Of a stretch of 40,190 nt of DNA, positions 13,294 through 34,170 are shown piece after piece (within the stretch, counting starts at the first letter, position 1; the number at the start of each line of letters is the position of its first letter). The stretch is from a virus (Duplodnaviria; Heunggongvirae; Uroviricota; Caudoviricetes). The notes under the pieces were generated by a model. That model was not told the origin of the DNA, made no database searches, and saw only the letters and a list, made by a program, of their open reading frames with translations. Made by a program: the position numbers and the translations under genes. The stretch covers positions 1-40,190 of the IMG/VR virus record IMGVR_UViG_2698536576_000006; one strand, given 5' to 3'.

Positions 13294-13638
13294 ATGCGTG
13301 ATATGTATGAAGTTTTGGACCGCTGGGGGGCATGGGCTGCTGCAGAAAACAGTGGTGTGGACTGGCAACCGGTAGCCGCTGGCTTCAAGGGGCTTTTACC
13401 TCATGGCAGAAAGTCCCGGATTCAGTGCGATGATGATGAGGGCATCATAATAGACGGTTGTGTCTCTCGGTTGCGTAAATATAAACCGGAAGAGTATGAG
13501 CTGATCATTGCACACTTTGTTATTGGTATATCGCTTCGAACTATTGCGAAGAAGCGAAAGTGCTCTGATGGAACGATAAGGAAGGAGCTACAAACTGCAA
13601 TAGGATTCGTTGAAGGGTGTATGTTGATTTTGTTTTGA
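13294..13638 (+). CDS. Q: Late-gene antiterminator Q
   Basis: Motifs RWGAWAA...AAGFKGL...QCDDDEGIIIDGCVSRL...KCSDGTIRKELQTAIGFVEGC match the phage antitermination Q family. Start set at ATG 13294 with GGAGA RBS. Confidence 0.8.
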   Translation: MRDMYEVLDRWGAWAAAENSGVDWQPVAAGFKGLLPHGRKSRIQCDDDEGIIIDGCVSRLRKYKPEEYELIIAHFVIGISLRTIAKKRKCSDGTIRKELQTAIGFVEGCMLILF

Positions 13639-13669
13639 TATTCGCAGAAGCCGCTAATGCGGCTTCTAA

Positions 13670-14152
13670 TTAAGAATTTATATTTCTTTTCTCTTCAAAT
13701 AATTCTTTAATTTTTAATGGTATAAATGTTGATTGTATGAATGAAAAACATGTTAAGAACGAAATTAAATGTGCAATAGTGGTTTTGGTATAATCAAAAT
13801 AAATACCGGAATGTGTTTTATCCTTGGATAAAAGATAAAAAACAAATATTAATGCAAGTGTAATTATATACATCAAAAATAAAGTGTAATATTTTACAAA
13901 GCGCATATAAAATCTAGTGTTTTGGTTTTCTTTTTCTAATGCATTAAGCGATTTAGATATTGATGAGTTTTCACCGGACATTGTGATAACTAACAATAAA
14001 AAACCAGATAGGATTGAGAAGACATTTGCAACAAGATTTAATGCATCATTATTATTTGTCAAACTATTCGTAAGATATTTGGAGAAAAGAAAGGAAGCCA
14101 CAAAATTTCCTATGGTAACTGAAATACCTGTCCAGTTATAATCTTTAAGCAT
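13670..14152 (-). CDS. Small four-helix integral membrane protein (RexB-like in topology), second gene of an inverted AT-rich two-gene module
   Basis: 160 aa with four hydrophobic segments of about 20 residues (res ~9-27, 38-60, 89-108, 124-146). AT-rich; opposite strand to the flanking phage late genes. Confidence 0.55.
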   Translation of the reverse strand: MLKDYNWTGISVTIGNFVASFLFSKYLTNSLTNNNDALNLVANVFSILSGFLLLVITMSGENSSISKSLNALEKENQNTRFYMRFVKYYTLFLMYIITLALIFVFYLLSKDKTHSGIYFDYTKTTIAHLISFLTCFSFIQSTFIPLKIKELFEEKRNINS

Positions 14153-14179
14153 ATGGCTCCCCTACAGTCTTTAGTTGCA

Positions 14180-15001
14180 TTATAACACATTTGTGACAAA
14201 ATGCTCTAAAATTTCATAAGCATATTTACTGGAAATTGTTTGTGATCCATATGGTAATGTGTAGTAAGTTTTTGTAAGTTTCATATCATCGCTAGTGATT
14301 TTCTCTCCTTTTTTAGTTTCAAAATAAAAGTCACTGTTTAAATCAGATAACCAGGGAGTCGGGTTACTTTCGATTGATGCAGCAACGGCAGGGTTACCTC
14401 TGGCATCAATAGTAAAATGACCACTTATTCCTGTTTGTTTTAATTTTGGTTCTTTTTTTACAAACGATGATAAGAAGTTAGGTTTTTTAACAAAATCTGA
14501 CTCATGTACATTGAAATTCACATGTACAGCACGTAAACCATCATCTTTTACTTTTTGAATTACATTCTTCTTTAAAACAGCTGACGGTATTATATCTATA
14601 CCGTAGCATTTGAATATTTTTGCTATTTTGACCTCACTCCAGTTGGTGGATATTTGAAGAAGTGAAGCAATCTGATTGCCTTTAACCATAAAAAAAGCAT
14701 GGAGATTGTCAAAATTTTCAACATCTAACAAATCTTTAACATTGGGTTTGTTTGGGGTAATCGATACTTCTTCTTTAGGGTTGTACAAAGAAAAATGTAA
14801 GTAATGGATATTACCACTGGTCCTGAATTCTTTTAACTTTAAATGTCTGTTAGTTGATAATGTGATTACGGAGCCCTGTACAAGTTGTTTATTGGTTGAT
14901 ATTTGCTGAAATAAATTATTTTTCCCGTCAAGGTTTACATTAAAAGCCCTGACTTGGCATTTTTTTGTTAAGTTGCTGTTTTTAGTGTCAGAAAAGTTCA
15001 T
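14180..15001 (-). CDS. Soluble 273-aa protein, first gene of the inverted two-gene module (candidate RexA-like sensor)
   Basis: AT-rich ORF 27 nt upstream of the membrane-protein gene on the same strand. Soluble ~270 aa plus ~150-aa 4-TM pairing mirrors lambda rexA-rexB. A short stretch (FFMVKGNQIASL) resembles my recollection of RexA; this is unverified. Confidence 0.5.
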   Translation of the reverse strand: MNFSDTKNSNLTKKCQVRAFNVNLDGKNNLFQQISTNKQLVQGSVITLSTNRHLKLKEFRTSGNIHYLHFSLYNPKEEVSITPNKPNVKDLLDVENFDNLHAFFMVKGNQIASLLQISTNWSEVKIAKIFKCYGIDIIPSAVLKKNVIQKVKDDGLRAVHVNFNVHESDFVKKPNFLSSFVKKEPKLKQTGISGHFTIDARGNPAVAASIESNPTPWLSDLNSDFYFETKKGEKITSDDMKLTKTYYTLPYGSQTISSKYAYEILEHFVTNVL

Positions 15002-15235
15002 GGTTTCCCCTTGTTCGCTGTGTGCCCTTATTCTAAAAAAAAACTACTGCGTACGCAAAAACTATTGTATCGTGTTAAGAGTGGTTACTACGCCACACAG
15101 CTTAAACCTGCTGCCAAGCGGGGTTTTTTGTGTCCGAAAAGTGGTGCAGTACGTTAAATGTGTATGTTGTTTTTTTAATATTCAGAAATAATAAAAACAC
15201 ATGCGTATATTTACAAATATTGACATTGTTTTCTA

Positions 15236-15263
15236 TTGAAAAAAGAACCGGCATTATTAATAT
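15236..15263 (+). promoter_or_regulatory. Candidate sigma70 promoter (possible late promoter PR') upstream of the tRNA genes
   Basis: -35 TTGAAA (15236-15241), 16-nt spacer, -10 TAATAT (15258-15263). Sequence-pattern only. Confidence 0.25.
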
Positions 15264-15325
15264 TGGTTCCCGGTTCCGAAGGGGGTGTAAAGCGGGGTCA
15301 TTTTTATTTCTCTTGAGGAACCAAT

Positions 15326-15401
15326 GCCGACTTAGCTCAGCAGGCAGAGCAACTGACTTGTAATCAGTGGGTCACCAGTTCGATTCCGGTAGTCGGCACC
15401 A
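15326..15401 (+). tRNA. tRNA-Thr (anticodon UGU)
   Basis: 76-nt cloverleaf folded by hand: acceptor GCCGACT/AGTCGGC, D-loop with GG, anticodon stem ACTGA/TCAGT with loop CTTGTAA, T-loop TTCGATT, 3' CCA encoded. Near-identical to host thrU as recalled. Confidence 0.9.
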
Positions 15402-15404
15402 TAT

Positions 15405-15479
<75 letters not shown>

Positions 15480-15739
15480 TAGTAGTAAGGCGAGATTGTA
15501 TTAGGCACTGGCACATTATATGTGGGGATAGTTTTTGGCCTCTTCATTTACATTCCGTTCTGTAATGAGTGATACTAATTGCAGTCCAGTGCTATTTTTA
15601 CACCATCAGAATGGTGCATTATAGGTAGAGATTTGTAATGTCTCTGGCTGGGACCGATAATGCATCATCCCGATGTTGTAAACATCACCCTATCATTGAG
15701 ATTAATCGTATATTAAGCAAAACTTGGAAATACATCCTT

Positions 15740-15770
15740 AACCGCCTTCATCAGGCGGTTTTTTTATTTT
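15740..15770 (+). terminator. Rho-independent terminator
   Basis: aaccgcct-tcatc-aggcggtt stem-loop followed by TTTTTTTTATTTTT. Confidence 0.55.
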
Positions 15771-16090
15771 TAATTCGCAAAAAAGAAAACATGGACACTG
15801 ATAATGCCCGTGCGGTAATGCCATGCAAGTTAGCGATAAATATGGAATAAAAAAAGCGCGGCTGTCGGATTAACGCTGCGGGACAAACTCCTTGAAGAAG
15901 AATAAGTATCGGTCTCCTTCAGGGAGATGCGTTTATATTACTAAGCATTAAGAATGGTTTGAATTCTCAGATTAACCTTAATTCCAGATGAGATTTATTT
16001 CATTTTCTCCGGGCCACGTCCGGCACACATCACATCAGATAACACCGCACAAAAGGCATCTGCGGGTGCCTTTGACGGGGTGTTTTTTAC

Positions 16091-16116
16091 GGGCCGCTGG
16101 TGGCCCTTTTTTATTT
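16091..16116 (+). terminator. Hairpin plus T-run immediately upstream of the holin gene (tR'-like candidate)
   Basis: gggcc-gctggt-ggccc followed by TTTTTT, 15 nt before the holin RBS. Confidence 0.45.
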
Positions 16117-16130
16117 ACAGGAGAAAAAGT

Positions 16131-16523
16131 ATGTCTGAACCCTTATCCGGTTCCGGCACGGCTGCGGCGCTCGGCGGGGCGACGGTATTCGGGCTGTTTA
16201 CCGGAACGGATTTCGGGATTGTGTTTGGTGCGTTCGCCGGGGCGTTATTTGTGGCAACGATGCCGCAGGCGCTTTCAGCCTGGCGTGTGGCGGCGCATTT
16301 TCTGGTGTCGTTCATTATCGGCGTGCTGGGGGCAGAGGTTCTGGCATCCTGGCTGGTCAGGCACACAGAGTTTAACGGTGCACCTGTTGACGCATTGTGT
16401 GCAGTACTGGTGTCAGTGGTGTCGGTGAAGATTCTCTCGTTCATCCACCAGCAGGATATTGCATCGCTGGTGTCCGGCCTGTTCTCCCGCCTGCGGGGTG
16501 GAGGAGGCGGCAATGTTAAGTAA
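16131..16523 (+). CDS. Holin
   Basis: 130-aa product from ATG 16131 (AGGAG RBS) with Gly/Ala-rich transmembrane segments and a charged C-terminus; first gene of the lysis cassette. ORF-track start 16080 rejected. Confidence 0.7.
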   Translation: MSEPLSGSGTAAALGGATVFGLFTGTDFGIVFGAFAGALFVATMPQALSAWRVAAHFLVSFIIGVLGAEVLASWLVRHTEFNGAPVDALCAVLVSVVSVKILSFIHQQDIASLVSGLFSRLRGGGGGNVK

Positions 16524-17022
16524 CCTTCCCGGATTGCTGAATGTGGCGTTATGTACGGTTATCGTGCTGACGCTCTTTTTTTATCGTCGTCGTGATTCCA
16601 GACATAAACCGCTGGTGTCATGGCTGGCCTGGCTGCTGATGCTGCTGTATGCCTTTGTGAGATTCAGCCGCCGGAGCGAGAAAAATCTGGAGGGCGTCAA
16701 ATCACAGCTGGTTGCTGTCGTTCGCCGTGCGCTGGAGCTGACGGAAGTTGATTTCGGTATTACGGAAGGCCTGCGCACAAAAGAGCGCCAGATACAACTG
16801 GTTGCGGAAGGGAAAAGCCAGACCATGAACAGCCGCCACCTGACCGGTGATGCGGTGGATGTTGTGGCCTACGTTGGCAACCAGGTGTCATGGGACTGGC
16901 CTCTGTACGAGAAAATCGCACAGGCATTTAATCAGGCTGCCGCAGAGCTGGGTATCGCCATTGAATGGGGCGGGGACTGGAGTTCTCTGAAAGACGGACC
17001 ACATTTCCAGCTGAAGCGCTGA
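16513..17022 (+). CDS. Endolysin, peptidase M15 family (L-alanyl-D-glutamate peptidase type) with hydrophobic N-terminal extension
   Basis: C-terminal region (VDFGITEGLRT...HLTGDAVDV...WGGDW...DGPHFQL) matches M15 zinc peptidase endolysins. About 60 N-terminal residues contain two hydrophobic stretches. Start ATG 16513 after GGAGGAGG. Confidence 0.8.
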   Translation: MLSNLPGLLNVALCTVIVLTLFFYRRRDSRHKPLVSWLAWLLMLLYAFVRFSRRSEKNLEGVKSQLVAVVRRALELTEVDFGITEGLRTKERQIQLVAEGKSQTMNSRHLTGDAVDVVAYVGNQVSWDWPLYEKIAQAFNQAAAELGIAIEWGGDWSSLKDGPHFQLKR

Positions 17023-17568: not shown

Positions 17569-18159
17569 TTATATGAATTGCTGGATAAAATCGTTCGGTT
17601 TTGTATATCCGTCAAGAACTAGATCGTGATTCTCCCGATGAAGAACCAGTGTATCCATATAATCAGGTTTAAATCTCCAGCCGTTCATCTTTTTTGCAAT
17701 TTTCGACAGACAGTGGTTATGCGTGAAAATTACAGTAATATTATCAGATTGTGATATTCCCAGTATGTTGTTAACTGCGCCATCATCACAGGTTGAAATA
17801 TCAGGAATGGTTGCTGTTTTCCCACCCGAAAAAAAAGAGGCTGTCTGTATCGTTCGGACTGTATCTGTTGAATAGAGACCGTAGTCCGGAAACATTTTGC
17901 TGAATGCATTTCCATATTGTTGAGCTTTGTTGGCTCCATTTATTGTGATTCCATCACGTTCCGACAGGCATGTATTTGTGGAGCGATCACATCGTTCTCC
18001 ATGTCTGATGAGAAAAATAATCTGATGCTTCTGGTTAATTTCAGTGATGTCATTCATATCAAGCCTGGCCGGAGTTCTTTTTATATATATGCTTGACAAG
18101 CAAACGAATATAACGAGTAAAGATATAATCAGAAATTTTATTATTGTGCGGCTGGGCAT
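17569..18159 (-). CDS. Ais/PmrG-like histidine-phosphatase (LPS core heptose(II)-phosphate phosphatase homolog), prophage moron
   Basis: Signal/TM N-terminus followed by RHGERCDRSTNTCLS...GITINGA...NAFS...LYSTDTVRTIQTA...IFTHNHCL, closely paralleling E. coli Ais as recalled. AT-rich, opposite strand. Start set at ATG 18159 (AAGGA RBS). Confidence 0.75.
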   Translation of the reverse strand: MPSRTIIKFLIISLLVIFVCLSSIYIKRTPARLDMNDITEINQKHQIIFLIRHGERCDRSTNTCLSERDGITINGANKAQQYGNAFSKMFPDYGLYSTDTVRTIQTASFFSGGKTATIPDISTCDDGAVNNILGISQSDNITVIFTHNHCLSKIAKKMNGWRFKPDYMDTLVLHRENHDLVLDGYTKPNDFIQQFI

Positions 18160-18247
18160 ATAAATATCCTTATACAGGTGTGTGAAAAAGGACATTATTA
18201 TTTGTAAATCTTATGTGATCCTTAAGGGGGGCTGACGTGGCGAAATG

Positions 18248-19607: not shown

Positions 19608-21724
19608 TGCCTGTGCAGGCGACCGCCAGATCGTTGAAACTGGATACGGGCCAGTTAATTAAAGCGCCGCGCAGAATGCCTGTTGCCGAAGCGGTACAAA
19701 AATTTATGCGAGTCCCTACATCTGGTGGCAACTCTGTTCCGTGGGATCCGATGGTTGCACCGTATGTGATTGACCCCATGAACTGCCTGTCGTCCCGTGA
19801 GTTTGATGCGGTTGTTTTTGTTGGTCCTGCCCGTACGGGCAAGACTAACGGCCTGATTGATGGCTGGGTGGTTTATAACATTGTCTGCGATCCGTCTGAC
19901 TTTTTGCTGGTGCAGATGACACAGGATAAGGCGCAGGAGCACTCCAAAAAGCGCCTGGCAAGAACATTTCGTTGCAGCCCGGAGGTCAGAAAACGCCTCA
20001 GCCCACGCCGTAACGATAACAACGTTCATGACAAATATTTTCTGTCGGGCAGCTTTCTGAAAATCGGCTGGCCTTCCATCAATGTCATGTCATCCTCTGA
20101 TTTTAAATGTGTGGCGCTGACTGATTACGACCGATTTCCTGAAGATATCGATGGCGAAGGCGATGGTTTTTCCTTGGCTTCAAAACGTACCACCACATTT
20201 ATGTCTGCAGGTATGACGCTGGTGGAGAGTTCCCCTGGACGTGAGATCACAAACAGCAAATGGCGCAGAACGTCACCGCATGAAGCCCCGCCCACAACGG
20301 GGATCCTTTCTCTGTATAACCGTGGCGATCGTCGTCGCTGGTACTGGCCCTGCCCGGATTGTGGTGATTATTTCCAGCCATCGATGGAGGCTATGACGGG
20401 ATATCGTGACAATCCTGATCCTGTAAAAGCCAGTGAAGCGGCTCATATATTGTGTCCGCATTGTGGCAGCCCAATCACTGCAGATATGAAACGTGAGCTG
20501 AATGGTCGCGGTGTCTGGTTGCGTGAAGGAGAGCATATTGACAGAGAAGGGAATGTTACCGGAACGCCCCGTCATTCAAGGATTGCCAGCTTCTGGATGG
20601 AAGGCCCCGCGGCAGCCTATCAGACCTGGGCGCAACTGGTTTACAAACTACTGACTGCTGAGCAGGAATATGAAGCCACAGGCAGTGAGGAAACACTGAA
20701 GGCGGTGATTAACACCGACTGGGGATTACCTTATTTGCCTCGTTCCGCCATGGAGTTGCGCAGTGCAGATGTTCTGATGCAGCGGGCCGGGAATTACGGT
20801 AAGCGCCTGGTACCGCCGAAAGTGCGTTTTCTTATTGCGGCTGTGGACGTGCAGGGCGGGAAGAACCGACGGTTTGTGGTGCAGATTATTGGTTATGGCG
20901 AGGACGGCGAACGCTGGCTGGTGGACCGTTATAACATCCGACAGTCATTGCGCTGTGATGAAAATGGCGAAGCATTACCTGTGCATCCCGGGGCTTACCC
21001 TGAAGACTGGCAATTACTGGTCACCGATGTACTGGAGAAAACGTATCCGCTCCAGTCCGATCCGGCCCGCAGAATGCCTGTACTGGCAATGGCGGTGGAC
21101 AGTGGTGGTGAGGACGGGGTGACGGATAACGCCTATAAATTCTGGCGAAAATGTCGTCAGGATGGACTGGGGCGACGGGTTTTTCTGGTAAAGGGAGACA
21201 GCACGAAACGCCAGAAAATTATCACCATCACGCACCCGGATAATACCGGGCGAAGCGATCGTCGTGCTGATGCTCAGGGGAAGGTGCCGGTATATCTCCT
21301 GCAGACAGACCTGCTGAAAGATCAACTAAGCAATAACCTGCAACGTGAAATGCCCGGACCAGGCTACATTCATTTTCCTGACTGGCTCGGGGAGTGGTTT
21401 TATGAAGAGTTGACCTACGAGGAACGCGGTGCTGACGGGAAATGGCGCAAGCCGGGAAAAGGGAATAACGAAGCATTTGACCTTTTTTGTTATGCCCATG
21501 CCGTCGCCATTCTGCGTGGCTATGAAAAAATCCGTGACTGGAGCAACCCTCCCCAGTGGGCAAGAGGGCAGGATGCTGATGCGGGTGCTTCGGCAGACAG
21601 ACGTTCTTCCGGCGCAGAGGACAAGAAAAACGTTGCCGGAAGAGATGAGCGGCAAAAAGCAGCGTCGCCGGAAGCGTTATCCGGAAACTGGTTATCACTA
21701 CCCCGAAACGGAGGATGGTTGTGA
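19607..21724 (+). CDS. Terminase large subunit (lambda GpA family)
   Basis: 705 aa; Walker A-like VFVGPARTGKT near the N-terminus; size and downstream nuclease-type region typical of GpA-family terminases. Confidence 0.9.
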   Translation: MPVQATARSLKLDTGQLIKAPRRMPVAEAVQKFMRVPTSGGNSVPWDPMVAPYVIDPMNCLSSREFDAVVFVGPARTGKTNGLIDGWVVYNIVCDPSDFLLVQMTQDKAQEHSKKRLARTFRCSPEVRKRLSPRRNDNNVHDKYFLSGSFLKIGWPSINVMSSSDFKCVALTDYDRFPEDIDGEGDGFSLASKRTTTFMSAGMTLVESSPGREITNSKWRRTSPHEAPPTTGILSLYNRGDRRRWYWPCPDCGDYFQPSMEAMTGYRDNPDPVKASEAAHILCPHCGSPITADMKRELNGRGVWLREGEHIDREGNVTGTPRHSRIASFWMEGPAAAYQTWAQLVYKLLTAEQEYEATGSEETLKAVINTDWGLPYLPRSAMELRSADVLMQRAGNYGKRLVPPKVRFLIAAVDVQGGKNRRFVVQIIGYGEDGERWLVDRYNIRQSLRCDENGEALPVHPGAYPEDWQLLVTDVLEKTYPLQSDPARRMPVLAMAVDSGGEDGVTDNAYKFWRKCRQDGLGRRVFLVKGDSTKRQKIITITHPDNTGRSDRRADAQGKVPVYLLQTDLLKDQLSNNLQREMPGPGYIHFPDWLGEWFYEELTYEERGADGKWRKPGKGNNEAFDLFCYAHAVAILRGYEKIRDWSNPPQWARGQDADAGASADRRSSGAEDKKNVAGRDERQKAASPEALSGNWLSLPRNGGWL

Positions 21725-21939
21725 AAAAAGATGAGATTTTCCAGATGCTGGTTATCGTGCGTCAGGCATACAGGGATTCCCTGGATGGTAAAAGTGTGTC
21801 TTTTACCGGGGTGAATGGCAGGGCGATCACCAACCATGATCCTGTTGCATTGCGCAGGGAGCTTGAATACTGGGAAAAACGCTGGGCGGCAGCCTGCCAG
21901 CCCACAAGGAAACCGTACAAACTCGCCCGTTTCTCCTGA
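21715..21939 (+). CDS. Head-tail joining protein (lambda gpW-like)
   Basis: About 70 aa, between terminase and portal as in lambda; pattern resembles gpW. Start may be GTG 21721. Confidence 0.6.
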   Translation: MVVKKDEIFQMLVIVRQAYRDSLDGKSVSFTGVNGRAITNHDPVALRRELEYWEKRWAAACQPTRKPYKLARFS

Positions 21940-21947
21940 GGTTTTTT

Positions 21948-23459
21948 ATGGGTTTTTTTGATAAAGCACTTGGCGCAATTGCGCCAGGGTGGGCGGTATC
22001 GCGCGCCAGAAACAAAACGCTGCTGAGAGCTTATGAGGCGGCGCAGCCTTCACGCCTGAATAAAGCCCGGCGCGAGAGTCGTTCTGCCGATACAGCGGTT
22101 TTTTCTGCCGGCACCTCGTTAAGGGAACAGGCCAGAGCACTGGATGAAGATCACGATATCGTGATTGGTCTGCTGGATAAGCTGGAAGAGCGGGTTATTG
22201 GTGCGCAGGGGATCCAGATTGAACCACAACCACTGAGAAGCGATGGCACCCTGCATGAATCGCTGGCAGAGCAGATCTCGGCATTGTGGTCTGAATGGTC
22301 TGTTCGCCCTGAGGTCACGGGGATGTTCACCCGCCCGGAGGCTGAACGGATGGCGTTGCGATCTGCTTTGCGCGATGGTGAGATGTTCGTACAACTGGTG
22401 CGTGGTCCTGTCGCCGGTCTGAATCATTCCACTATGGTGCCATTATCACTGGAGCTTCTCGAAGCAGATTTTGTTCCGGTCAGTCTGAACACGAACGCGG
22501 GGCAGCAAGTCCGTCAGGGCATTATTCTTAACAACTGGGGACGACCCGTAGGGTATCGGGTTTATAAATACCACCCTGCAAATATGCGCGGATTCAGCGC
22601 CGATCTCAAAACTGTTGAGGCAGACAGCATGTTGCATCTGGCGATGCGGAAGCGCCTGCATCAGGTGAGAGGTGTCAGTCTGTTACATGGCGTGATTCGC
22701 CGGATTGCTGATCTGAAAGATTACGAAGAATCAGAGCGTGTGGCTGCCCGTATTGCTGCCGCGCTTGGCTTCTACATTAAACGCGGTGATGCGGCCAGCT
22801 TTCCGACGGATAACGACTGGACACCTCCAGAACAAAAAAACCGGTATTTTGATATTTCGCCGGGCATGATTTTTGACGAACTGGCCCCCGGTGAAGATCT
22901 GGGAATGGTGGAGTCTAACCGCCCGAACGTTCATCTTTATGAATTCCGTAACGGTCAGTTGCGTGCTGTGGCTGCCGGAACCCGCGGCAGCTATTCCAGT
23001 ATTGCCCGTGACTATAACGGCTCCTACAGTTCGCAGCGCCAGGAACTGGTGGAAGGTTACGAAGGCTACGGGGTTTTACAGCAGTGGTTTGTCGGTCAGT
23101 ACAGCCGCCCGGTGTACCGGGCATGGCTGGAGCAGGCAAAGCCTTTTCTTGATATTCCTCCTGATGTTGATATGTCCACGCTTTTCAATGCCACTTATCT
23201 TGGTCCGGTGATGCCGTGGATTGATCCGGTGAAGGAGGCTGCAGCATGGCGGGCCATTCTTCGCGGTGGTGCCGGGACGGAGGCCGAGTGGATACGTGCC
23301 CGAGGGCAGTCACCGCAGGAGGTCAAACGTCAGCGACTGCGTGAAACTGAATTTAACCGGGAAAACGGGCTGGTGTTCGATTCTGACGCCGCTAACGATA
23401 AAGGAGTGATCCCTGATGCAGCAAATGATAAACCCGCGTCTTCGCGGGACGATGATTAA
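21948..23459 (+). CDS. Portal protein
   Basis: 503-aa ORF directly after terminase and gpW, before the protease-capsid gene. Assignment mainly by size and synteny. Confidence 0.8.
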   Translation: MGFFDKALGAIAPGWAVSRARNKTLLRAYEAAQPSRLNKARRESRSADTAVFSAGTSLREQARALDEDHDIVIGLLDKLEERVIGAQGIQIEPQPLRSDGTLHESLAEQISALWSEWSVRPEVTGMFTRPEAERMALRSALRDGEMFVQLVRGPVAGLNHSTMVPLSLELLEADFVPVSLNTNAGQQVRQGIILNNWGRPVGYRVYKYHPANMRGFSADLKTVEADSMLHLAMRKRLHQVRGVSLLHGVIRRIADLKDYEESERVAARIAAALGFYIKRGDAASFPTDNDWTPPEQKNRYFDISPGMIFDELAPGEDLGMVESNRPNVHLYEFRNGQLRAVAAGTRGSYSSIARDYNGSYSSQRQELVEGYEGYGVLQQWFVGQYSRPVYRAWLEQAKPFLDIPPDVDMSTLFNATYLGPVMPWIDPVKEAAAWRAILRGGAGTEAEWIRARGQSPQEVKRQRLRETEFNRENGLVFDSDAANDKGVIPDAANDKPASSRDDD

Positions 23460-25506
23460 TCCCCGCGCCAGCCTTGCGGGGGTGGATGCCGCTAATGGTC
23501 AGTGCTGGTATGAAATCCGTGCACAGACTGTCGGGCGGGTGGAAATTTACCTCTATGACGTGATTGGCGGATGGGGCATCACTGCGCAGCAGTTTATTGC
23601 TGACTGTAAGGATGCGGGGGTGTTTGAGGCCAGCGCCATTGATCTGCATATCCACAGCCCGGGCGGTGATGTGATGCAGGGCTTTGCCATCTTTAACACG
23701 CTGTCACGCCTGAAAGCGAAGGTGGATATCTGGGTGGACGGTGTTGCTGCCAGCATGGCCTCCATGATTGTCTGCCTGCCTGGCGCCACAGTGCATATGC
23801 CTGAAAATTCCTGGCTGATGATCCACAAGCCGTGGGGCGGGATCGCCGGTGATTCTGATGATATGCGTGATTATGCCGACTGGCTGGATCGCAATGAGGC
23901 GCTGATGCTGTCAGCCTACATGAATAAAACCGGACTCGGGCAGGAGGAGCTGGAAGCCATGCTGAAAGCAGAAACCTGGCTGAACGGTGCTGAAGCCGTG
24001 GAAAAAGGCTTCGCTGATACGCTTGAACCTGAATTACAGGCTGTGGCCTGTGTGAACCAAAATAAACTGAAGGATTATCATAATATGCCAGAACAGCTTA
24101 ACGCGCTTTTTGCTCCGCGTGCGGAAACGACGAACGGACAGCCGCAGGAGCCGAAAGCAACCCCGCAAAATGCGCAACAGATTGCTGCTCAGCAGGCACC
24201 ATCAACCGGAAATGTGGATATCAGCGCAATTGCTTCGCAGGTTCAGCAACAACTGATGGCAGCCAATGCGGAACGTGTGCAGGCTGTAACCGCAGTTTTT
24301 GCCTCTTTCCCGTCTTATGCCGCACTGAAAGCGGAGTGTCTGAACGACATGACCTGTACGGAAGCACAGGCCCGTGAAAAACTGTTGCAGGCGCTGGCAG
24401 CCGGAACGACACCAAGTGCAGGCCCGGGCGCTGTTCATATTCATGCCGGGAACGGTAATCTGGTCGGCGATTCCATTCGTGCGGCTGTGATGGCACGCGC
24501 CGGATATGCCGAAGCAGAAAAAGATAATGCTTATAACGGTTTTACACTGCGCGAGCTGGCGCGTGCTTCGCTGGTTGATCGCGGTATCGGTATCTCCGGT
24601 CATTCCGCACCGATGGCGATGGTTGGGCTGGCATTTACTCACAGCAGCAGCGATTTCGGCAATATCCTGATGGATGTGGCTCATAAAGCTGCGTTGCAGG
24701 GCTGGGATGATGCCAGCGAAAATTTTGACAAATGGACCCGCAAGGGAACGCTGACTGATTTTAAAACCGCGCATCGTGTCGGGCTGGAAACTTTCCCGAC
24801 GCTACGAAAAGTATTGCCGGGGGCTGAATATAAATATGTGACCCTGAAAGATCGTGGCGAACCGATTGCACTGGCGACGTATGGCGAATTGTTCAGCATT
24901 GATCGCCAGACCATCATCAATGATGACCTGGATATGCTGACCCGTATTCCGATGGCAATGGGGGCTGCTGCGCGGACTACCGTGGGTGATCTGGTCTGGG
25001 CCGTGCTGACCAGCAATCCGAAAATGTCGGATGGCAAACCGCTGTTCCATGCAGATCATGGCAACCTGGTGACTGCAGATTTGTCTATTGAGGGGCTGGA
25101 TTCCGGGCGTAAAGCTATGCTGCTCCAGAAATCGGGTGACCGTCGCCTGAACATTCGTCCTGCTTTTATGTTGACGCCTGTTGCCATTGAGTCGCGTGCC
25201 AATCAGTTGATTAAGTCTGCCAGCGTGCCCGGTGCAGATGCGAACAGCGGCATTATTAACCCGATTCAGAATTTTGCCACGGTTCTGTCAGAGGCCCGTC
25301 TTGATGACAGCAGCCCGACGGATTATTACCTGGTGGCAGCGCAGGGGCGTGACACGATTGAAGTGGCTTACCTCGACGGTATTGATATGCCGTATCTGGA
25401 GCAGCAACAGGGCTTTACGGTTGATGGTGCAGCATTCAAGGTGCGCATTGATGCCGGAGTGGCACCGCTTGACTGGCGTGGCATGGTCAAAGTGAAAAAA
25501 CAGTAA
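23416..25506 (+). CDS. Prohead protease (ClpP/S14-like) - scaffold linker - major capsid protein fusion
   Basis: 696 aa. N-terminal protease region with ClpP-like catalytic-serine context (VDGVAASMASMIV), central Gln/Ala/Pro-rich linker, C-terminal ~330 aa capsid-like region. Confidence 0.8.
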   Translation: MQQMINPRLRGTMINPRASLAGVDAANGQCWYEIRAQTVGRVEIYLYDVIGGWGITAQQFIADCKDAGVFEASAIDLHIHSPGGDVMQGFAIFNTLSRLKAKVDIWVDGVAASMASMIVCLPGATVHMPENSWLMIHKPWGGIAGDSDDMRDYADWLDRNEALMLSAYMNKTGLGQEELEAMLKAETWLNGAEAVEKGFADTLEPELQAVACVNQNKLKDYHNMPEQLNALFAPRAETTNGQPQEPKATPQNAQQIAAQQAPSTGNVDISAIASQVQQQLMAANAERVQAVTAVFASFPSYAALKAECLNDMTCTEAQAREKLLQALAAGTTPSAGPGAVHIHAGNGNLVGDSIRAAVMARAGYAEAEKDNAYNGFTLRELARASLVDRGIGISGHSAPMAMVGLAFTHSSSDFGNILMDVAHKAALQGWDDASENFDKWTRKGTLTDFKTAHRVGLETFPTLRKVLPGAEYKYVTLKDRGEPIALATYGELFSIDRQTIINDDLDMLTRIPMAMGAAARTTVGDLVWAVLTSNPKMSDGKPLFHADHGNLVTADLSIEGLDSGRKAMLLQKSGDRRLNIRPAFMLTPVAIESRANQLIKSASVPGADANSGIINPIQNFATVLSEARLDDSSPTDYYLVAAQGRDTIEVAYLDGIDMPYLEQQQGFTVDGAAFKVRIDAGVAPLDWRGMVKVKKQ

Positions 25507-25578
25507 ATAACCGCCGGACAGGGCGGTTTTTTTATGGCTGAAGCGGCGTACCAGGCGCCGCATTTACCGGAGAAGAAA

Positions 25579-25908
25579 ATGTCAAAAAATTTTGTTCAGG
25601 ACGGAAAAAACGTCGACTGGCTGAATGGGACCGGAAAGGTGGTGTCATCTGGCTATCTGGTTGTTCAGGATAATCTTGTTGGTGTTGCTCATGCTGATAT
25701 TCCGGACGGGGATGTGGGCATTCTGCATACGGTGGGGGTTTTTTCTTTGCCTAAAGAGGCAGAGGCACTGACGCAAGGCAAGCTGGTGTATTTCAAAGCA
25801 GATACGGCAACACTGACGGCAACGAAATCAGGTAATACGCTGGTGGGAACAGTATGGGCATCGGCTGAAGCCGGAGATGCCTGTGTTTGTGTGCGTCTGG
25901 GGTACTGA
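25579..25908 (+). CDS. Putative head-associated (decoration-like) protein
   Basis: 109 aa from ATG 25579 (GGAGAAG RBS), immediately downstream of the capsid gene. Function by position only. Confidence 0.4.
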   Translation: MSKNFVQDGKNVDWLNGTGKVVSSGYLVVQDNLVGVAHADIPDGDVGILHTVGVFSLPKEAEALTQGKLVYFKADTATLTATKSGNTLVGTVWASAEAGDACVCVRLGY

Positions 25909-26264
25909 TGCATCGATTTTATAAACGGCTGATGCGGGCAGATGCCCGCATTTCCCGGCTTTTTTCCGAGGAGTGTCCGGCGATACTGTCTATTGGCAGC
26001 GAGCGTCGCCCTGTTATGGTGATTTTTGAATCTCCGGATGCGCCGGTTCGTGTCCCGGGTGGTGGAGAAATTAACGATCAGGCTCCGGCATTCAGCGCAC
26101 TGACAGAGGATATTAAGGGGCTCAGCACAAACTGTGCAGTGGAGCTGAACCACGAATTTTACCGCGTCACGCATATTGGTGCGGATGAAATGGGGCGCAC
26201 ACGCGTAACGCTCGGGCGAGGACGGGGGACGTCGTTACCGTCCATCGAATGGAGTAAAAAATAA
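25908..26264 (+). CDS. Putative head completion / head-tail adaptor protein
   Basis: 119 aa; TGATG coupled start; position between head and tail modules. Confidence 0.4.
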   Translation: MHRFYKRLMRADARISRLFSEECPAILSIGSERRPVMVIFESPDAPVRVPGGGEINDQAPAFSALTEDIKGLSTNCAVELNHEFYRVTHIGADEMGRTRVTLGRGRGTSLPSIEWSKK

Positions 26265-26285
26265 ACTTCATAAGGAGATATCGCA

Positions 26286-26969
26286 ATGGCGCGGGCATCA
26301 CGCATCCGGAGAAATCTGTTATTTGATATCGACGTCGAAGAATTGTGGGATATTGCGGCGCAGGCTGGCGCAACGCAGCACCAGTTTCGTCTGGCCTATT
26401 CCCGCGCACTGAAGCGAACGGCATCAAAAATGCGCATGAAGGCGCTTGCGGAACTGAAAACCGGTCTGGCGCCCCGCAAAATGGACATGCTGCGCAGGCG
26501 TCTTTTTTCCACTCGCATTACCCGGGGTAATGCAATGGATGAAGCCCGTTTCTGGTTTGGTCTTAATGCGATCAAGATAAAGGATCTACGCGGACGCATT
26601 CGTGGACGACGTGTTCGTCATCATGATCTCCGTGATCCGGTAACCGGGCGGTTTATCAAAGAGAACCGTGCCCGACGGCGTCGCCGCAAAGCCAGCGATC
26701 CCGTTTTTGAGCCCAACGGTTCGTTTTTATCTCCTGCCACGTATGAAAACGGGCTGGTGATACGCAGCCGTAAAGAGAACCGACGAACGATCATCATCAA
26801 AAATCCGGAGACGGGGCGCGTCCGTGAAGCCGAGGCCAACATTTACGCCCGCACGATGGATTACGTGGAGGATGTGGCTTTTGCGGAGTGCCTGGAGATT
26901 TTTATGAAAGAGTTCGAATCAGACATCCGGCGACGCGCGAAGTACGGCATTACCGTGACCCCCCGATAA
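26286..26969 (+). CDS. Hypothetical virion morphogenesis protein (Arg-rich)
   Basis: 227 aa, strongly basic, within the structural cluster. No motif recognised. Confidence 0.4.
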   Translation: MARASRIRRNLLFDIDVEELWDIAAQAGATQHQFRLAYSRALKRTASKMRMKALAELKTGLAPRKMDMLRRRLFSTRITRGNAMDEARFWFGLNAIKIKDLRGRIRGRRVRHHDLRDPVTGRFIKENRARRRRRKASDPVFEPNGSFLSPATYENGLVIRSRKENRRTIIIKNPETGRVREAEANIYARTMDYVEDVAFAECLEIFMKEFESDIRRRAKYGITVTPR

Positions 26970-26985
26970 AAAACGTGAGGATGTA

Positions 26986-27555
26986 ATGGCTGAACCCTTA
27001 TGCATGGCATCCTGGCACACTGCTGTGCTGGATGCCCTGAAAAAACTTAAATGGATCAATGATGCGGACACCTATCCGGAACGGGTCACGCAGCTGGTCA
27101 CTCCGGCGGTGTTTCTGGCGGTCGATGGCTGGGATGCGAAAAGCAATGCAGACGGGCAGATGACGGTGGTGTTGTCTGCCGCGTTGTGGGTACTGGTTGA
27201 CCGTGCCGGTGAGCCGGAAGAAGAAAAAAAAGAAGAACGCAAGGCGATAAAGCCGGATATTTTTATCCGTTCGGCAGCCGCCGATCTGACGCATTGGCTC
27301 GACGGGCAGACGTTCGGACTGGCAAATGTGGAGCCTGCCATTTTTATATCAGCGGACGCAGATGAAACCGATCCGCGCCTGGATGATTATCTGGTCTGGC
27401 AGATTTTATTTAACCAGACGGTGACGTTTGGTATGGATCCCTTTGCCACGGATAACCTGCCGCTACAGCGGGCCTGGCTGGGCGTGGCACCGGAGATCGG
27501 GCGACAGCATGTGGATGATTACCGGCTGATTTTTGAGGGAAAGCCACGTGAATGA
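26986..27555 (+). CDS. Hypothetical structural protein (possible tail completion protein)
   Basis: 189 aa in the structural operon, immediately before the gpV-like gene. Confidence 0.4.
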   Translation: MAEPLCMASWHTAVLDALKKLKWINDADTYPERVTQLVTPAVFLAVDGWDAKSNADGQMTVVLSAALWVLVDRAGEPEEEKKEERKAIKPDIFIRSAAADLTHWLDGQTFGLANVEPAIFISADADETDPRLDDYLVWQILFNQTVTFGMDPFATDNLPLQRAWLGVAPEIGRQHVDDYRLIFEGKPRE

Positions 27556-28168
27556 GGTTCTGGGGGATTTACAGCGTCGCCTGGCAAATATGGTCCGGCG
27601 TGGGGTGATCCACTCGGTGCGGCTGGACGGTGGTTTTCCGGAATGCCGCGTGGATCTGGGGGATATTGTGACCACCTGGCTGCCATTGTGTCAGGGTTTT
27701 GCCGGAAAAAACCGGGCAGATTTTGAGCCGTTTGCTGTGGGCGATGCGGTCACGGTACTGTCAGAGGCCGGGGAGCTGAATAACGGTCGTGTTTTTCCCG
27801 GCTGGAACACCGGTGCGGCACCGGCTCCGCAGGGCAGCGACAGTGAGCACATCACCCGTTACGGAGATGGTACTGAAATTTGCTATAACCGGGAGACGCA
27901 CTCACTGACCATTATTCTGGCGGAAGGGGGCACCTATGCCATTACCGGGAATGGTGTGCTTGACGGAAACGTCGTGATTTCAGAAAACCTGATCGTGAAC
28001 GGACGCACGATGGTTGAAGGTGAAGTGGTGGTGAAAAGTGATTTTTATGCAAAAGGCGAGGTGACGGATAAATCCGGCAGCATGAGCCGGATCCGGAAAA
28101 CGTTTAATGGACACGACCATCCCGGAGACAGTGGGGGAACCACGAAAATACCGAATCAGAAAATGTGA
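27548..28168 (+). CDS. Baseplate central spike protein (P2 gpV-like)
   Basis: C-terminal NGHDHPGDSGGTT matches the gpV HxH-PGDSGGTT spike-tip motif; N-terminus parallels gpV. Start set at GTG 27548. Confidence 0.7.
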   Translation: MNEVLGDLQRRLANMVRRGVIHSVRLDGGFPECRVDLGDIVTTWLPLCQGFAGKNRADFEPFAVGDAVTVLSEAGELNNGRVFPGWNTGAAPAPQGSDSEHITRYGDGTEICYNRETHSLTIILAEGGTYAITGNGVLDGNVVISENLIVNGRTMVEGEVVVKSDFYAKGEVTDKSGSMSRIRKTFNGHDHPGDSGGTTKIPNQKM

Positions 28169-28206
28169 CCTGCTGCGGCAGGTTTTTTTATGTCCGGAGA
28201 ATGCAA

Positions 28207-29676
28207 ATGGGGCAATTACATGGTGTGGAAACCATCGAGCTGACGACAGGCACGGTGGCAGTAACCACAATAGAGACAGCCATTATTGGTGTGGTGGGAA
28301 CCGCACCGCAGGCTGCCGGGGCTGTTGCAGCAACACTGACAGCGGGAACGCCGCTGCTGGGTAATGAGCTGACCTTTACGGCAAAAGTGGGGGGACGGAG
28401 CGGAAATACCATTACCGTTATTGCTGAACAGGCTTTACAGGCAGCAAAAGAAAAAAGTGCGGGTGCGGTTCCCACGTCAGCAAAATGGGAAAACGGAAGT
28501 CTGTTGATTTGGCTTGGATGCAGTGAAGAGGGGGCTGGTAATGCCACCGTCAGTGATGTTGTGACGGCAGTGAATGGTGCGGCGGGGGCCGGGGTGATTG
28601 CCTCCGGTAGTGGTGACGGTGTTGTGTCGCCGTTTTCCGGCACACTGAGTGGTGGCGAAGATGAACCGTTTCCGCTGAATACGCCAGTGACGATGGCGGG
28701 GACAACGGCGCTTTCACGTCTGGGGAGCGCCGGAACACTGAAGCAGGCGCTGACGGAGATTAACGACCAGCGTAACGCGCTGTCGGTGATCGTCCGGGTG
28801 GAAGAAAAAACGAATCCGGAAGAGCAGCGTGCTGCCATTCTTGCGGGGATCAGCGTGCTGTCATCGGCAAAATCCGTCACCACGTATCAGCCACGTATTG
28901 TGATCGCACCAGGATTCAGTGAAGACGATGCGGTGGGTAAGGCACTGGAAACTGTGGCCGGAAAACTGCGTGCAGTGGCGTACGTGGATTGTACTGCGGG
29001 CGCGACACTGCAGGATGTGGTGCAGCGTCGCCAGTCTTACGGTGCCCGGACTGAATTACTGCGTCCGCGTGTGCAGGTCAGTAATGCAGAGGGGCAGCTG
29101 GTGTATCGCCCGTATTCAGCGTTTGCTGCCGGACTGCGTGCCCGTATTGACTATGAAAAAGGGTGGTGGTGGAGCAAATCAAACCAGGAGGTTTACAACA
29201 TCCTCGGTGTTGAGAAGGTGGATGAATTTATCCTCGGTGAGCGCAACTGCGATGCCAACCTGCTTAATATGCAGAATATCTCCACCCTGATCCGCCGTGC
29301 CGGATTTAAACACTGGGGAAACCGGCTGTGCTCGTCCCATCCCCAGTGGCATTTTGAGTCCGTCCGCCGTACTGCGGATGTGATTGAAGACAGTATCCAG
29401 GAGGCGATGCTGGCATATGTTGACCGCCCGCTCGATCGCCAGAATGCGGATGACATTATCGGCACCATTAATGCGTATATGCGTCGTCTGGTGGCAGAAG
29501 GTGCCATCTTCGGGGGGCGGGCCTGGCTGGATCCGGAACTGAATACCGCTGAAACGCTGGCAGCCGGTGAACTGTACATCAACTATGACTTCGGCCCCAA
29601 ATCGCCGACGGAACTTATCAGCATGCGGGTGAGCGTCAACAACGAATACGGCATTAAGGAGATGACGGCAACATGA
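28207..29676 (+). CDS. Contractile tail sheath protein
   Basis: About 490 aa directly upstream of the tail tube gene with overlapping stop/start; Mu/P2-type sheath size. Start ATG 28207 after GGAGA. Confidence 0.8.
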   Translation: MGQLHGVETIELTTGTVAVTTIETAIIGVVGTAPQAAGAVAATLTAGTPLLGNELTFTAKVGGRSGNTITVIAEQALQAAKEKSAGAVPTSAKWENGSLLIWLGCSEEGAGNATVSDVVTAVNGAAGAGVIASGSGDGVVSPFSGTLSGGEDEPFPLNTPVTMAGTTALSRLGSAGTLKQALTEINDQRNALSVIVRVEEKTNPEEQRAAILAGISVLSSAKSVTTYQPRIVIAPGFSEDDAVGKALETVAGKLRAVAYVDCTAGATLQDVVQRRQSYGARTELLRPRVQVSNAEGQLVYRPYSAFAAGLRARIDYEKGWWWSKSNQEVYNILGVEKVDEFILGERNCDANLLNMQNISTLIRRAGFKHWGNRLCSSHPQWHFESVRRTADVIEDSIQEAMLAYVDRPLDRQNADDIIGTINAYMRRLVAEGAIFGGRAWLDPELNTAETLAAGELYINYDFGPKSPTELISMRVSVNNEYGIKEMTAT

Positions 29677-30179
29677 GCAGCAAAAACACATTACGCGCCT
29701 GGACTTTTTTCCGCCAGGGGGTCCGTATTCAGGGAGCGCATGAATTCACGCCACCCACGCTGTCCATTACCACCACCGATTTACGCACCGGGGCACAGGA
29801 TGCGCCAACCCCGGTTGACGACGGCATGGAGGCGCTGACCTGCCAGATTAAGTTTTATGGTCTGGATACAGATATGCTGTCCAGTCTCGGATTTGTCAGT
29901 GGCAATCGCTCCCGCTTCACGGCCTATCAGGGGTATCTGGCGAACGGCACCGCGCTGGGGACCACTGAAGAAATCGAAGGGTTTGTGAAAACGGTGACGC
30001 CGGATGCGCGCGGAAACAGCAGCCTGTCAGAAAATGCAGTGACTGTGGAAATCGCGGTGAATTATTACCGTCAGACACTGGAGGGGATCGAGCTCATTAT
30101 GATTGATACCGAGCGTTTTGAACGCCGGATCAACGGCGTGAATGTACTTGCCGGCCTGTCGGCAAAAGTGCGTCTCTGA
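29673..30179 (+). CDS. Tail tube protein
   Basis: 168 aa (P2 FII is about 172 aa) immediately after the sheath gene. Confidence 0.7.
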   Translation: MSSKNTLRAWTFFRQGVRIQGAHEFTPPTLSITTTDLRTGAQDAPTPVDDGMEALTCQIKFYGLDTDMLSSLGFVSGNRSRFTAYQGYLANGTALGTTEEIEGFVKTVTPDARGNSSLSENAVTVEIAVNYYRQTLEGIELIMIDTERFERRINGVNVLAGLSAKVRL

Positions 30180-30230
30180 TCACTGATTAACGCATAACGG
30201 CCTGCGGGCCGTTTTTTTAAGGAGCAGATT

Positions 30231-30530
30231 ATGAATATTCCGGGCGAAACCCGCACCATCACACTGTACACGCCGGTCACTCTGGGGGGCGGGGCTGTGC
30301 TGGAATGCATCACCATGCGCGAACCGCTGGTGCGCGATCGCATTGCCTTCACCAAAGACCGGGGAACAGAAGAGGAAAAAGAGGCGCGTATGATTGCGCA
30401 GCTTTGTAATCTGAGTGAGCAGGATATCTGGCTGCTGACCGCAGCGGATTATGCCCAGCTGACGGATGCCTTTAATGTTTTTATGCTGCCACCCGGGAAG
30501 CGACCGAAACCGAAATCTTCAGAGGGTTAA
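30231..30530 (+). CDS. Tail assembly chaperone (P2 gpE-like), possible frameshift partner
   Basis: 99 aa between tube and tape-measure genes. A -1 frame remains open from about 30476 to 30658, overlapping the 3' end. Confidence 0.5.
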   Translation: MNIPGETRTITLYTPVTLGGGAVLECITMREPLVRDRIAFTKDRGTEEEKEARMIAQLCNLSEQDIWLLTAADYAQLTDAFNVFMLPPGKRPKPKSSEG

Positions 30531-30632
30531 GGTTTCTCGGGCGGCGGCTGCATTTTCCTCTTTCTGATTATCTGTCCATGCCGTTCAGTGTGTTTACGGC
30601 ATTTTTACTGGATGAAGTGGAGGCAGTAAAAC

Positions 30633-32291: not shown

Positions 32292-32767
32292 GTGTGGGTT
32301 CGGTTATTGCTCTCGCTGAAGACAGCCTTCAGCGTGACAACAGTTATCTCCGTGGTGCTGCAGATGCCAGAGTCATGCTGATGCTGGGGGATTTCGCCTT
32401 TTCCGTGGATACCACGGCATATAACCAGCTGACCCGTGAGGCTGGGTGGACCTGGAGCGAGCAGGCGCGTATCGGGCTGCAGAGTCTGCTGCAGTACACC
32501 GGGAAAAACGGGCGAACCGTCCGCCTTGAAGGGGAATCGCACGCCTTTTTGGGGAAGTCGGGGACGGAGGCGGTGAACACGCTGTATGACCTGGCGAATA
32601 AGGCTGAGCCGCAACTGCTGGTCAGTGGAGAAGGTGATGTGCTGGGATGGTGGGTGGTGGAGCGTTTTTCTGATTCCACCGACCGCTTTTTACCTGGTGG
32701 TGGGCACCGTAACAAAAAGTGGAGTCTGGAGCTGAAACATTATGCCGACGATCTGGATAACCCGTGA
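32288..32767 (+). CDS. Tail protein (P2 gpU-like)
   Basis: About 159 aa, following the tape measure as in P2; internal MLMLGDFAFSV resembles the gpU N-terminus as recalled. Start uncertain (GTG 32267/32288/32294). Confidence 0.55.
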   Translation: MSVGSVIALAEDSLQRDNSYLRGAADARVMLMLGDFAFSVDTTAYNQLTREAGWTWSEQARIGLQSLLQYTGKNGRTVRLEGESHAFLGKSGTEAVNTLYDLANKAEPQLLVSGEGDVLGWWVVERFSDSTDRFLPGGGHRNKKWSLELKHYADDLDNP

Positions 32768-32957
32768 CGGGGATGTGCTTGATGCGATTTGCGCCACGCA
32801 TTACGGCACGGAAAATCTGTCTGCCGTGCTCACTCTTGTGCTGGAGGCCAATCATGGGCTGGCAGAGAAGGGCGCGGTGTATCCTGCGGGGATCCACATT
32901 GTGTTGCCTGAAATCACACAACAGGTGTCTGAGTCGCCATACAGTCTGTGGGATTAA
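32742..32957 (+). CDS. Tail protein X (P2 gpX-like, LysM-type)
   Basis: 71 aa; DGDVLDAICATHYG...LEANHGLAEKGAVYPAGIHIVLPE parallels P2 gpX. Confidence 0.7.
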   Translation: MPTIWITRDGDVLDAICATHYGTENLSAVLTLVLEANHGLAEKGAVYPAGIHIVLPEITQQVSESPYSLWD

Positions 32958-32965
32958 GGGAGGAG

Positions 32966-34168: not shown

Positions 34169-34170
34169 TC

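Follow-up and report, generated by a model that had tools for sequence, protein, structure and literature searches.

Two adjacent minus-strand genes, A (14180..15001; 273 amino acids (aa), soluble) and B (13670..14152; 160 aa, a membrane protein), were analysed in the virus record IMGVR_UViG_2698536576_000006 of IMG/VR (Caudoviricetes), the whole of which, 40,190 nucleotides (nt), is called the window hereafter. We lean towards the explanation that A and B are prophage cargo and make up a two-component module of the RexAB type for phage exclusion (abortive infection), and the pair is probably an unannotated, sequence-divergent relative of RexAB. This reading is drawn from the predicted fold of A, its membrane partner, the gene order and the genomic position of homologous pairs. 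By analogy, A would be the putative sensor or DNA-binding component, the counterpart of RexA, and B the putative effector, the counterpart of RexB. In such a mechanism A, a cytoplasmic DNA-binding dimer, would sense the infecting phage and switch on B, a small four-helix inner-membrane effector, and active B would collapse the membrane potential so that the infection is aborted. The operon would be read leftward from its own promoter, back-to-back with a Q-dependent late promoter; since the operon would lie outside the late transcript, expression from the repressed prophage would be possible. We infer lysogen expression, DNA binding by A, activation of B, depolarisation and protection from these likenesses.

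Both genes were found by the open reading frame (ORF) call on the minus strand, in agreement with the initial annotation, a reading of the window made from its letters, and the markedly lower GC that it had described was confirmed as well: 0.319 for A and 0.259 for B, compared with 0.499 over the whole window and 0.533 and 0.486 in the left and right flanks, respectively. The third codon positions show the same difference (GC3 of 0.28 and 0.22 vs 0.45-0.56 in neighbouring genes). Shine-Dalgarno sequences precede both genes, GGGGA for A and GGGGAG for B, the latter being read from the sequence of the 27-nt intergenic spacer (14153..14179, minus strand). In distant relatives the two genes are separated by 3 nt or overlap, which fits their co-translation as a pair. 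The ratio of nonsynonymous to synonymous substitution rates (dN/dS) is 0.077 for A and 0.064 for B in comparison with the 89%-identical allele of strain NT1F25 (dS 0.57-0.79), and 0.147 and 0.108, respectively, with a 60%-identical allele; across the allele comparisons dS ranges from 0.57 to >2. Together with the Shine-Dalgarno sequences and protein lengths that stay constant across genera of Enterobacterales, these ratios identify A and B as real genes under purifying selection. An unusual composition, and the fact that neither ORF matched an annotated family, might suggest chance frames or decaying remnants in AT-rich filler DNA. This explanation is already refuted by the conservation data, namely dN/dS of 0.06-0.15 at such dS and the constant lengths, to which the confident AlphaFold2 models and an A-B pairing kept down to 20% identity may be added.

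A and B form an obligate pair and were never apart among the loci examined. A is followed by B in 46 of 46 viral-contig loci of IMG/VR and in ten other prophage loci (L002 and L004-L012), and the pairing is kept beside every distant relative examined at 20-30% identity (P0182, P0188, P0193, P0184, P0190 and phage PhiR11_1), where the partners were recognised by the B profile at E values of 1e-8 to 1e-34 or by the common motif of transmembrane (TM) helix 2. The divergence of B closely tracks that of A across locus pairs (Spearman 0.92, 1,035 pairs). As with rexA directly upstream of rexB, B begins 27 nt after A. The A family comprised 54 clusters at 90% identity in a word-indexed search; every named cluster came from Enterobacterales, and nearly all were 273 aa long. 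A profile search in 1.84 billion representative proteins returned 23 at E <= 1e-3. The B family comprised 137 clusters at 90% identity. Most of the A-B family belongs to Enterobacterales, and more distant branches come from unassigned metagenome assemblies. Among 5,426 complete E. coli genomes the pair was found in about 18, in three alleles: about ten genomes carry the window allele, seven a cI-linked allele, and one gave a weak partial match to the third. The GC content of the pair is low at all loci (0.29-0.35), the lysis cassettes that flank it vary, and A has changed more rapidly than the neighbouring Q (typically 58% vs 81% identity). An AT-rich pair on the opposite strand that is rare, diverges fast and has varied lysis neighbours has the character of cargo.

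The structure of A was predicted from a 30-sequence alignment with a mean predicted local distance difference test score (pLDDT) of 78.8 and a predicted TM-score (pTM) of 0.72. The model shows the two-domain fold common to RexA and RdgC, with near-equal scores against the two in structure comparison. The fold relatives of A are the same set as that reported for RexA by Adams et al. 2024 (PMC11077077), which makes a chance match unlikely. Going by this model, A is a RexA/RdgC-fold protein. It has no hydrophobic segment (highest Kyte-Doolittle 19-residue mean 1.08), as expected from the initial description of a soluble protein of ~270 aa. Among divergent versions the conserved part of A is a beta-hairpin, F-x-V-x-G-N-x-I. 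A resemblance of a short motif to RexA had also been pointed out at the outset. The same segment, FFMVKGNQI at residues 103-111 of A against FLFVEGDTI in RexA, is indeed the sole stretch that hhalign aligns, at a probability of <1%, which is not significant; the aligned stretches are collinear and at similar positions in the two proteins, again without significance. In PHROGs, A belongs to phrog_23561, a family of unknown function.

In the case of B, three strong transmembrane segments were predicted at 40-58, 90-108 and 126-144, in addition to a weaker N-terminal hydrophobic helix at ~8-25. The AlphaFold model consists of four long helices and a short C-terminal helix (pLDDT 77.9), and helix 1 is clearly hydrophobic in distant B homologues. 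The distribution of Lys and Arg, 8 inside vs 3 outside, favours a topology with both termini in the cytoplasm. The most conserved blocks are TM2 (DALNLVAN.FSIL.GFLLLVIT) and the loop between TM2 and TM3 (Q77, F81, R84, F85). It is reasonable to regard B as a membrane protein with four predicted helices; the earlier count of four TM helices is likewise reasonable as a prediction, with four long helices in the model, three of them strong and the fourth weaker by hydrophobicity. Assignments of B to DUF4064, BrkB or E1-E2 ATPase were rejected, the hits being below the curated cut-offs and due to hydrophobic composition. No match was obtained for B above threshold in NCBIfam, nor to holin families in the Pfam and PHROGs scans.

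The most telling context is that homologous pairs occupy the cI-rexA-rexB slot in three divergent branches. In Escherichia phages PhiR11_1 and 2G7b, cro is followed by the oppositely directed cI, then by the A homologue (283 aa, 29.6% identity), the B homologue (163 aa, hhalign E 3.6e-34) and N. In the P0184 and P0190 lineages the pair comes directly after a CI-type repressor with helix-turn-helix (HTH) and Peptidase_S24 domains, divergent from a cro-like gene. Placement next to cI was found at loci L027, L029 and L030, and canonical rexA-rexB of lambda and its relatives lies in the same place after cI. The window pair itself is not directly downstream of cI and is ~7 kb from the repressor-like gene ymfK. 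Hence the initial statement placing the pair outside the cI operon holds for the window and fails for the family, given the cI slot in PhiR11_1, 2G7b, P0184 and P0190. In contrast, the idea put forward there, a diverged RexAB-like pair of soluble sensor and membrane effector, gained support from the homologues in the rex slot and from the finding that A and B never occur apart.

Other branches sit beside gpD/gpU of a P2-like prophage and at an apparently non-prophage chromosomal site, and such varied sites correspond to the behaviour of mobile cargo. At the former (L017, 2825-6018), a distant A-B pair (299 and 155 aa), an extra 200-aa gene and an HTH protein adjoin gpD, gpU and the tape-measure gene; this site in the P2-like prophage looks like a cargo or defence hotspot. 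A separate observation concerns a lambdoid prophage bearing A-B (L011, 8213-9912), which has colicin (PF01024) and colicin immunity (PF03857) genes in its early region.

Several results weigh against a RexAB-type module, and foremost among them is that BLASTP, hidden Markov model (HMM) and hhalign comparisons gave no sequence-level link between A or B and RexA or RexB, the controls being positive. The RexA models (Pfam PF15969, PADLOC PDLC02339) matched neither A nor any of 25 family members at E <= 1, while lambda RexA was found at 1.4e-96 (Pfam) and 1.3e-108 (PADLOC). Likewise, the RexB models (Pfam PF15968, PADLOC PDLC02340) did not match B at E <= 1, with lambda RexB at 8.2e-92 and 8.6e-61, respectively. 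In hhalign the A family aligned with a 24-sequence RexA alignment at E 0.84 (wide A alignment) and 0.19 (narrower), and the B family with RexB at E 0.23 and with Sbash gp31 at E 0.12. Reciprocal HMM searches in tiny databases yielded bit scores of 0-3 between the A family and RexA and ~0-5 between the B family and RexB. Direct BLASTP of A against lambda RexA and of B against lambda RexB found nothing. Structure searches added little: Foldseek of A against PDB gave nothing significant, its best entry being the kinetochore protein Iml3, and Foldseek of B against BFVD gave nothing significant and left lambda RexB outside the top 50. Rank 9 of the latter search was a 165-aa Sbash protein (probability 0.92, TM ~0.5, E 0.29), which from the length match is probably gp31, the RexB-like effector; it lends weak support at best to a Rex relationship. 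Moreover, the first helix of B is weakly hydrophobic in the window allele, and a literature search on the protein accessions and the PHROG identifier turned up no paper that names A or B.

Wider searches with A were equally silent. It matched no model of Pfam, NCBIfam or PADLOC, including the RdgC model of Pfam (PF04381); phmmer and profile searches of PDB sequences returned noise only and did not retrieve RexA; and a Pfam scan of the 25 members of the widened A family gave scattered noise without RexA, DUF4747 or RdgC.

The near-equal RdgC score leads to a different reading, which we consider unlikely, in which A is an RdgC/RexA-fold DNA-binding protein serving the biology of the prophage itself, with B as anchor or cofactor. 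Its task could be recombination, the lysogeny-lysis switch or late transcription at the adjacent promoter, and RexA in lambda also modulates the lysogeny-lysis switch. The strict linkage of the pair to one type of Q and late promoter is in line with such a role. Nevertheless, a purely DNA-directed regulator would not need the membrane partner that always accompanies A, and A lacks a match to the RdgC model. Moreover, the pair is found away from both cI and Q as well, at the P2-like tail genes and at the apparently non-prophage site, and, being uncommon and absent from most prophages that have this Q and late promoter, it is dispensable.

A membrane-acting cargo of non-Rex type, either superinfection exclusion (Sie) that blocks DNA entry or a toxin-antitoxin-like pair with B as toxin and A as regulator, appears quite improbable. 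Sie-type and toxin systems typically have small prophage membrane proteins that the lysogen expresses, and an AT-rich opposite-strand moron whose B has no sequence homology to RexB would suit them. However, this explanation would not lead one to expect a RexA/RdgC fold in A or homologous pairs in the rexAB slot behind cI, and no PADLOC model, toxin families included, matches A or B. Since B is a small multi-helix membrane protein and holin and endolysin genes are close by, one may also think of a holin- or antiholin-like lysis accessory with A as its regulator, the two tuning lysis timing. We regard this as very improbable: the pair is on the opposite strand, outside the late transcript and upstream of the late-promoter element, its homologues behind cI or beside tail genes are far from lysis genes, the lysis cassettes vary while the pair is constant, and B matches no holin family. 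All of these last explanations, spurious ORFs included, agree with the data less well than the RexAB-type module.

The location of the pair is fixed to a high degree. The 2.1 kb around it is present in the E. coli E10 chromosome at 99.9% identity, where the annotated order is antiterminator Q family protein (ending at 13638 of the window), two hypothetical proteins, tRNA-Thr, tRNA-Gly, two holins, M15 peptidase and lysis protein. The initial placement between Q and the tRNA and lysis genes is correct in this respect: the Q gene (13294..13638, plus strand, from the E10 annotation), which converges on B, forms the left border of the slot, and to the right of the pair come tRNA-Thr (UGU; 15326-15401, plus strand) and tRNA-Gly (UCC; 15405-15479, plus strand), both called by ARAGORN and Rfam, and then holin and endolysin genes. 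A Q homologue of PF06530 type converges directly on B in 46 of 46 viral-contig loci and in the ten prophage loci L002 and L004-L012. The Q proteins of this clade are of one type, 65-90% identical to that of the window, while A goes down to 42-63%. In the 31-nt gap between the stop codons of Q and B, a hairpin AGAAGCCGC-TAAT-GCGGCTTCT (13646..13667) was found, with RNA folding energies of -18.3 kcal/mol on the plus strand (z -4.3) and -17.1 on the minus strand (z -5.2), matched by none of 200 shuffles. The terminator scan did not call this hairpin, which has no clean T-run; it may be a terminator or an insulator of the convergent transcripts.

The right border of the slot is a conserved element of ~80 nt, GCGTACGCAAAA...TGtTAAGAGTGGTTACT.CGCCACACAGCTTAAAC (15049..15130, plus strand), followed by a hairpin at 15107-15122 and a T-run, with tRNA-Thr as the first gene downstream. 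The element is nearly invariant across loci with different cassettes and precedes the start codon of A by a median of 42 nt (45 of 45 loci). In the cassette-free prophage L025 it starts at the Q stop codon, and in DLP12 it precedes essD and is separated from Q by nmpC. It was found in 3,715 of 5,426 complete E. coli genomes and, at the Q end, in 141 phage records, many of them Stx phages (Stx, Shiga toxin). Its terminator-like site was picked up by the terminator scan. These features would make it a Q-dependent late promoter (PR') with a short leader and a terminator, and the A-B module would then separate Q from the late promoter and be left out of the late transcript. Membership of A-B in the late operon was rejected, as the pair is upstream of the late-promoter element and on the opposite strand. 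In Stx phages, stx is positioned downstream of the late promoter. The initial analogy with the site of Stx toxin cargo is slightly off in this respect: the pair is upstream of the element that directly follows Q in Stx phages, i.e. in the nmpC slot of DLP12. A literature search for a described defence hotspot at the Q/lysis region found nothing specific.

At the 5' edge of the element there is an 8-bp palindrome, GCGTACGC (15049-15056), which is invariant or nearly so in L002, L004-L011 and L023-L025; it could be a protein-binding site, e.g. a Q-binding element. Further downstream, two strong intrinsic-terminator-like sites were noted on the plus strand between the tRNA and holin genes (15740-15760 and 16091-16106). 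The region 13400-16200 contains six terminator-like sites vs 1.8 expected from shuffles, an excess that fits a late operon in need of Q antitermination.

A candidate sigma-70 promoter for A-B was located at 15030..15058 on the minus strand, with a -35 TTGCGT (15058-15053), a 17-nt spacer and a -10 TAGAAT (15035-15030), giving a predicted 5' untranslated region of ~22 nt. Its -35 falls within the palindromic part of the late-promoter element, that is, it overlaps GCGTACGC. Of 45 related loci, 34 have the pattern TTGCG[TC]-N16-18-TAnnnT ahead of A, the -10 being mostly TACAAT. With 8 of 12 consensus positions, the candidate is under the threshold of the consensus scan, a further point to the disadvantage of the RexAB-type module as outlined; the scan itself offered an alternative at 15216-15188 (TTGTAA-17-TATTAT). 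From sequence, then, the identity of the promoter is a tentative assignment, and expression of A-B independent of the late transcript is plausible.

The same slot is occupied by a different opposite-strand pair, with the same upstream sequence, in E. coli PSJ-22 (L023, 1885-3448). This pair encodes a soluble protein of 343 aa and a 179-aa protein with four hydrophobic helices, and contains the motif F-x-V-F-G-N-x-I, like that of A, and an NEQRR loop. Neither protein matched Pfam or PADLOC. The similarity of the PSJ-22 protein to the A family is marginal (hhalign E 0.0047, probability 7.5%; HMM ~8 bits), and the pair may be a second Rex-like family. An extended proposal can be derived, namely that the short gap between one type of Q and its late promoter is a dedicated slot with its own promoter for swappable Rex-like pairs, and that the module may be tied to the switch from lysogeny to late transcription. 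We consider this extension rather unlikely. The common upstream sequence of A-B and the PSJ-22 pair and the promoter overlapping an invariant palindrome would be the grounds for such wiring. A module wired in this way would be on in the lysogen and would be turned off or antagonised once Q-dependent and convergent read-through transcription fires. If so, A-B would be a new Rex-like family whose regulatory coupling has no known counterpart in lambda RexAB and whose trigger may differ from that of Rex.

Other features of the prophage were noted in passing. Compared with the otherwise 99.8%-identical E10 prophage (L001, 12114-12769), the window lacks 146 nt in 16513-17022, by which the first 49 codons of the second holin-family gene are fused in frame to codon 6 of the M15 metallopeptidase endolysin; the outcome would be a membrane-anchored endolysin fusion or a lysis-cassette deletion. 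Conversely, the E10 copy has lost ~15 kb, from the large terminase gene to a baseplate gene; in the window (20238-35269) this part is complete, with a terminase ORF of 705 aa as well as head and tail genes. The prophage contains one more moron, a 208-aa gene on the minus strand (17569-18195) immediately behind the lysis cassette, for which the E10 annotation reads lipopolysaccharide core heptose(II)-phosphate phosphatase.

No phage-exclusion system has, to our knowledge, been known for longer than RexAB, and the way it works is still unresolved. Few of its relatives had been recognised until recently because they escape sequence searches. The DefensePredictor paper contains no mention of Rex. 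What is new here is a protein family invisible to annotation libraries, its fixed location from Q to the late promoter, and a candidate promoter overlapping the late-promoter element. The divergent versions reveal the conserved parts, i.e. the beta-hairpin of A and, in B, TM2 and the TM2-TM3 loop. As the locus also shows, lambdoid prophages have a cargo slot at the junction of Q and the late promoter, separate from that of stx; this helps in annotating defence and virulence cargo, and the family is directly testable in E. coli K-12 with existing phage panels. Conceptually A-B is unsurprising, and it adds a clean and testable case to a system of unsettled mechanism.

Comparison with known systems places the pair as follows. 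The slot analogue nmpC of DLP12 is, like A-B, opposite-strand cargo between the Q region and the same element, but it is not a homologue, its product being an outer-membrane porin unrelated to A and B. RdgC (PDB 2OWL) is encoded by a lone chromosomal gene (~300 aa) without a membrane partner, whereas A always comes with B. To lambda RexA and RexB (PF15969/PF15968; RexA PDB 8TWQ), A and B have no detectable sequence similarity, and unlike lambda rexAB the window pair stands outside the cI operon, in opposite orientation in the slot from Q to the late-promoter element, and has its own candidate promoter. As far as in-silico evidence goes, A-B would work like RexAB without being a member of the RexA/RexB sequence family. 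In P. putida, PP_5643 of the pair PP_5643/PP_5644 was linked to RexA by HHpred with 98% probability (PMC12894663), a link not seen for A in our hhalign runs; compared by description only, PP_5643 is longer (37.5 kDa including tag) and belongs to another host and prophage. For the P. putida pair, a clamp-like dimer of the soluble protein around DNA and a pore-like oligomer of the membrane protein are reported. The closest parallels in architecture are Sbash gp30/gp31 and CarolAnn gp44/gp43, which likewise pair a soluble with a 4-TM protein and are expressed from the prophage, sometimes inverted and displaced from the repressor (PMC6426596, PMC11077077), as A-B is in the window. At ~160 aa, with four predicted helices and a conserved TM2-TM3 loop, B has a predicted architecture like that described for RexB and Sbash gp31, and in these pairs the central loop matters for the function of the membrane protein (PMC6426596). 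The soluble proteins gp30 and gp44 are of ~370 aa vs 273 aa for A, and hhalign gave no significant alignment for either the A family with Sbash gp30 or the B family with gp31. Taken together, by its modelled structure A-B fits the broad RexAB-type class, defined by a prophage soluble protein structurally like RexA and an adjacent 4-TM protein, with no sequence homology to RexB required, alongside Sbash 30/31, CarolAnn 44/43 and PP_5643/5644.

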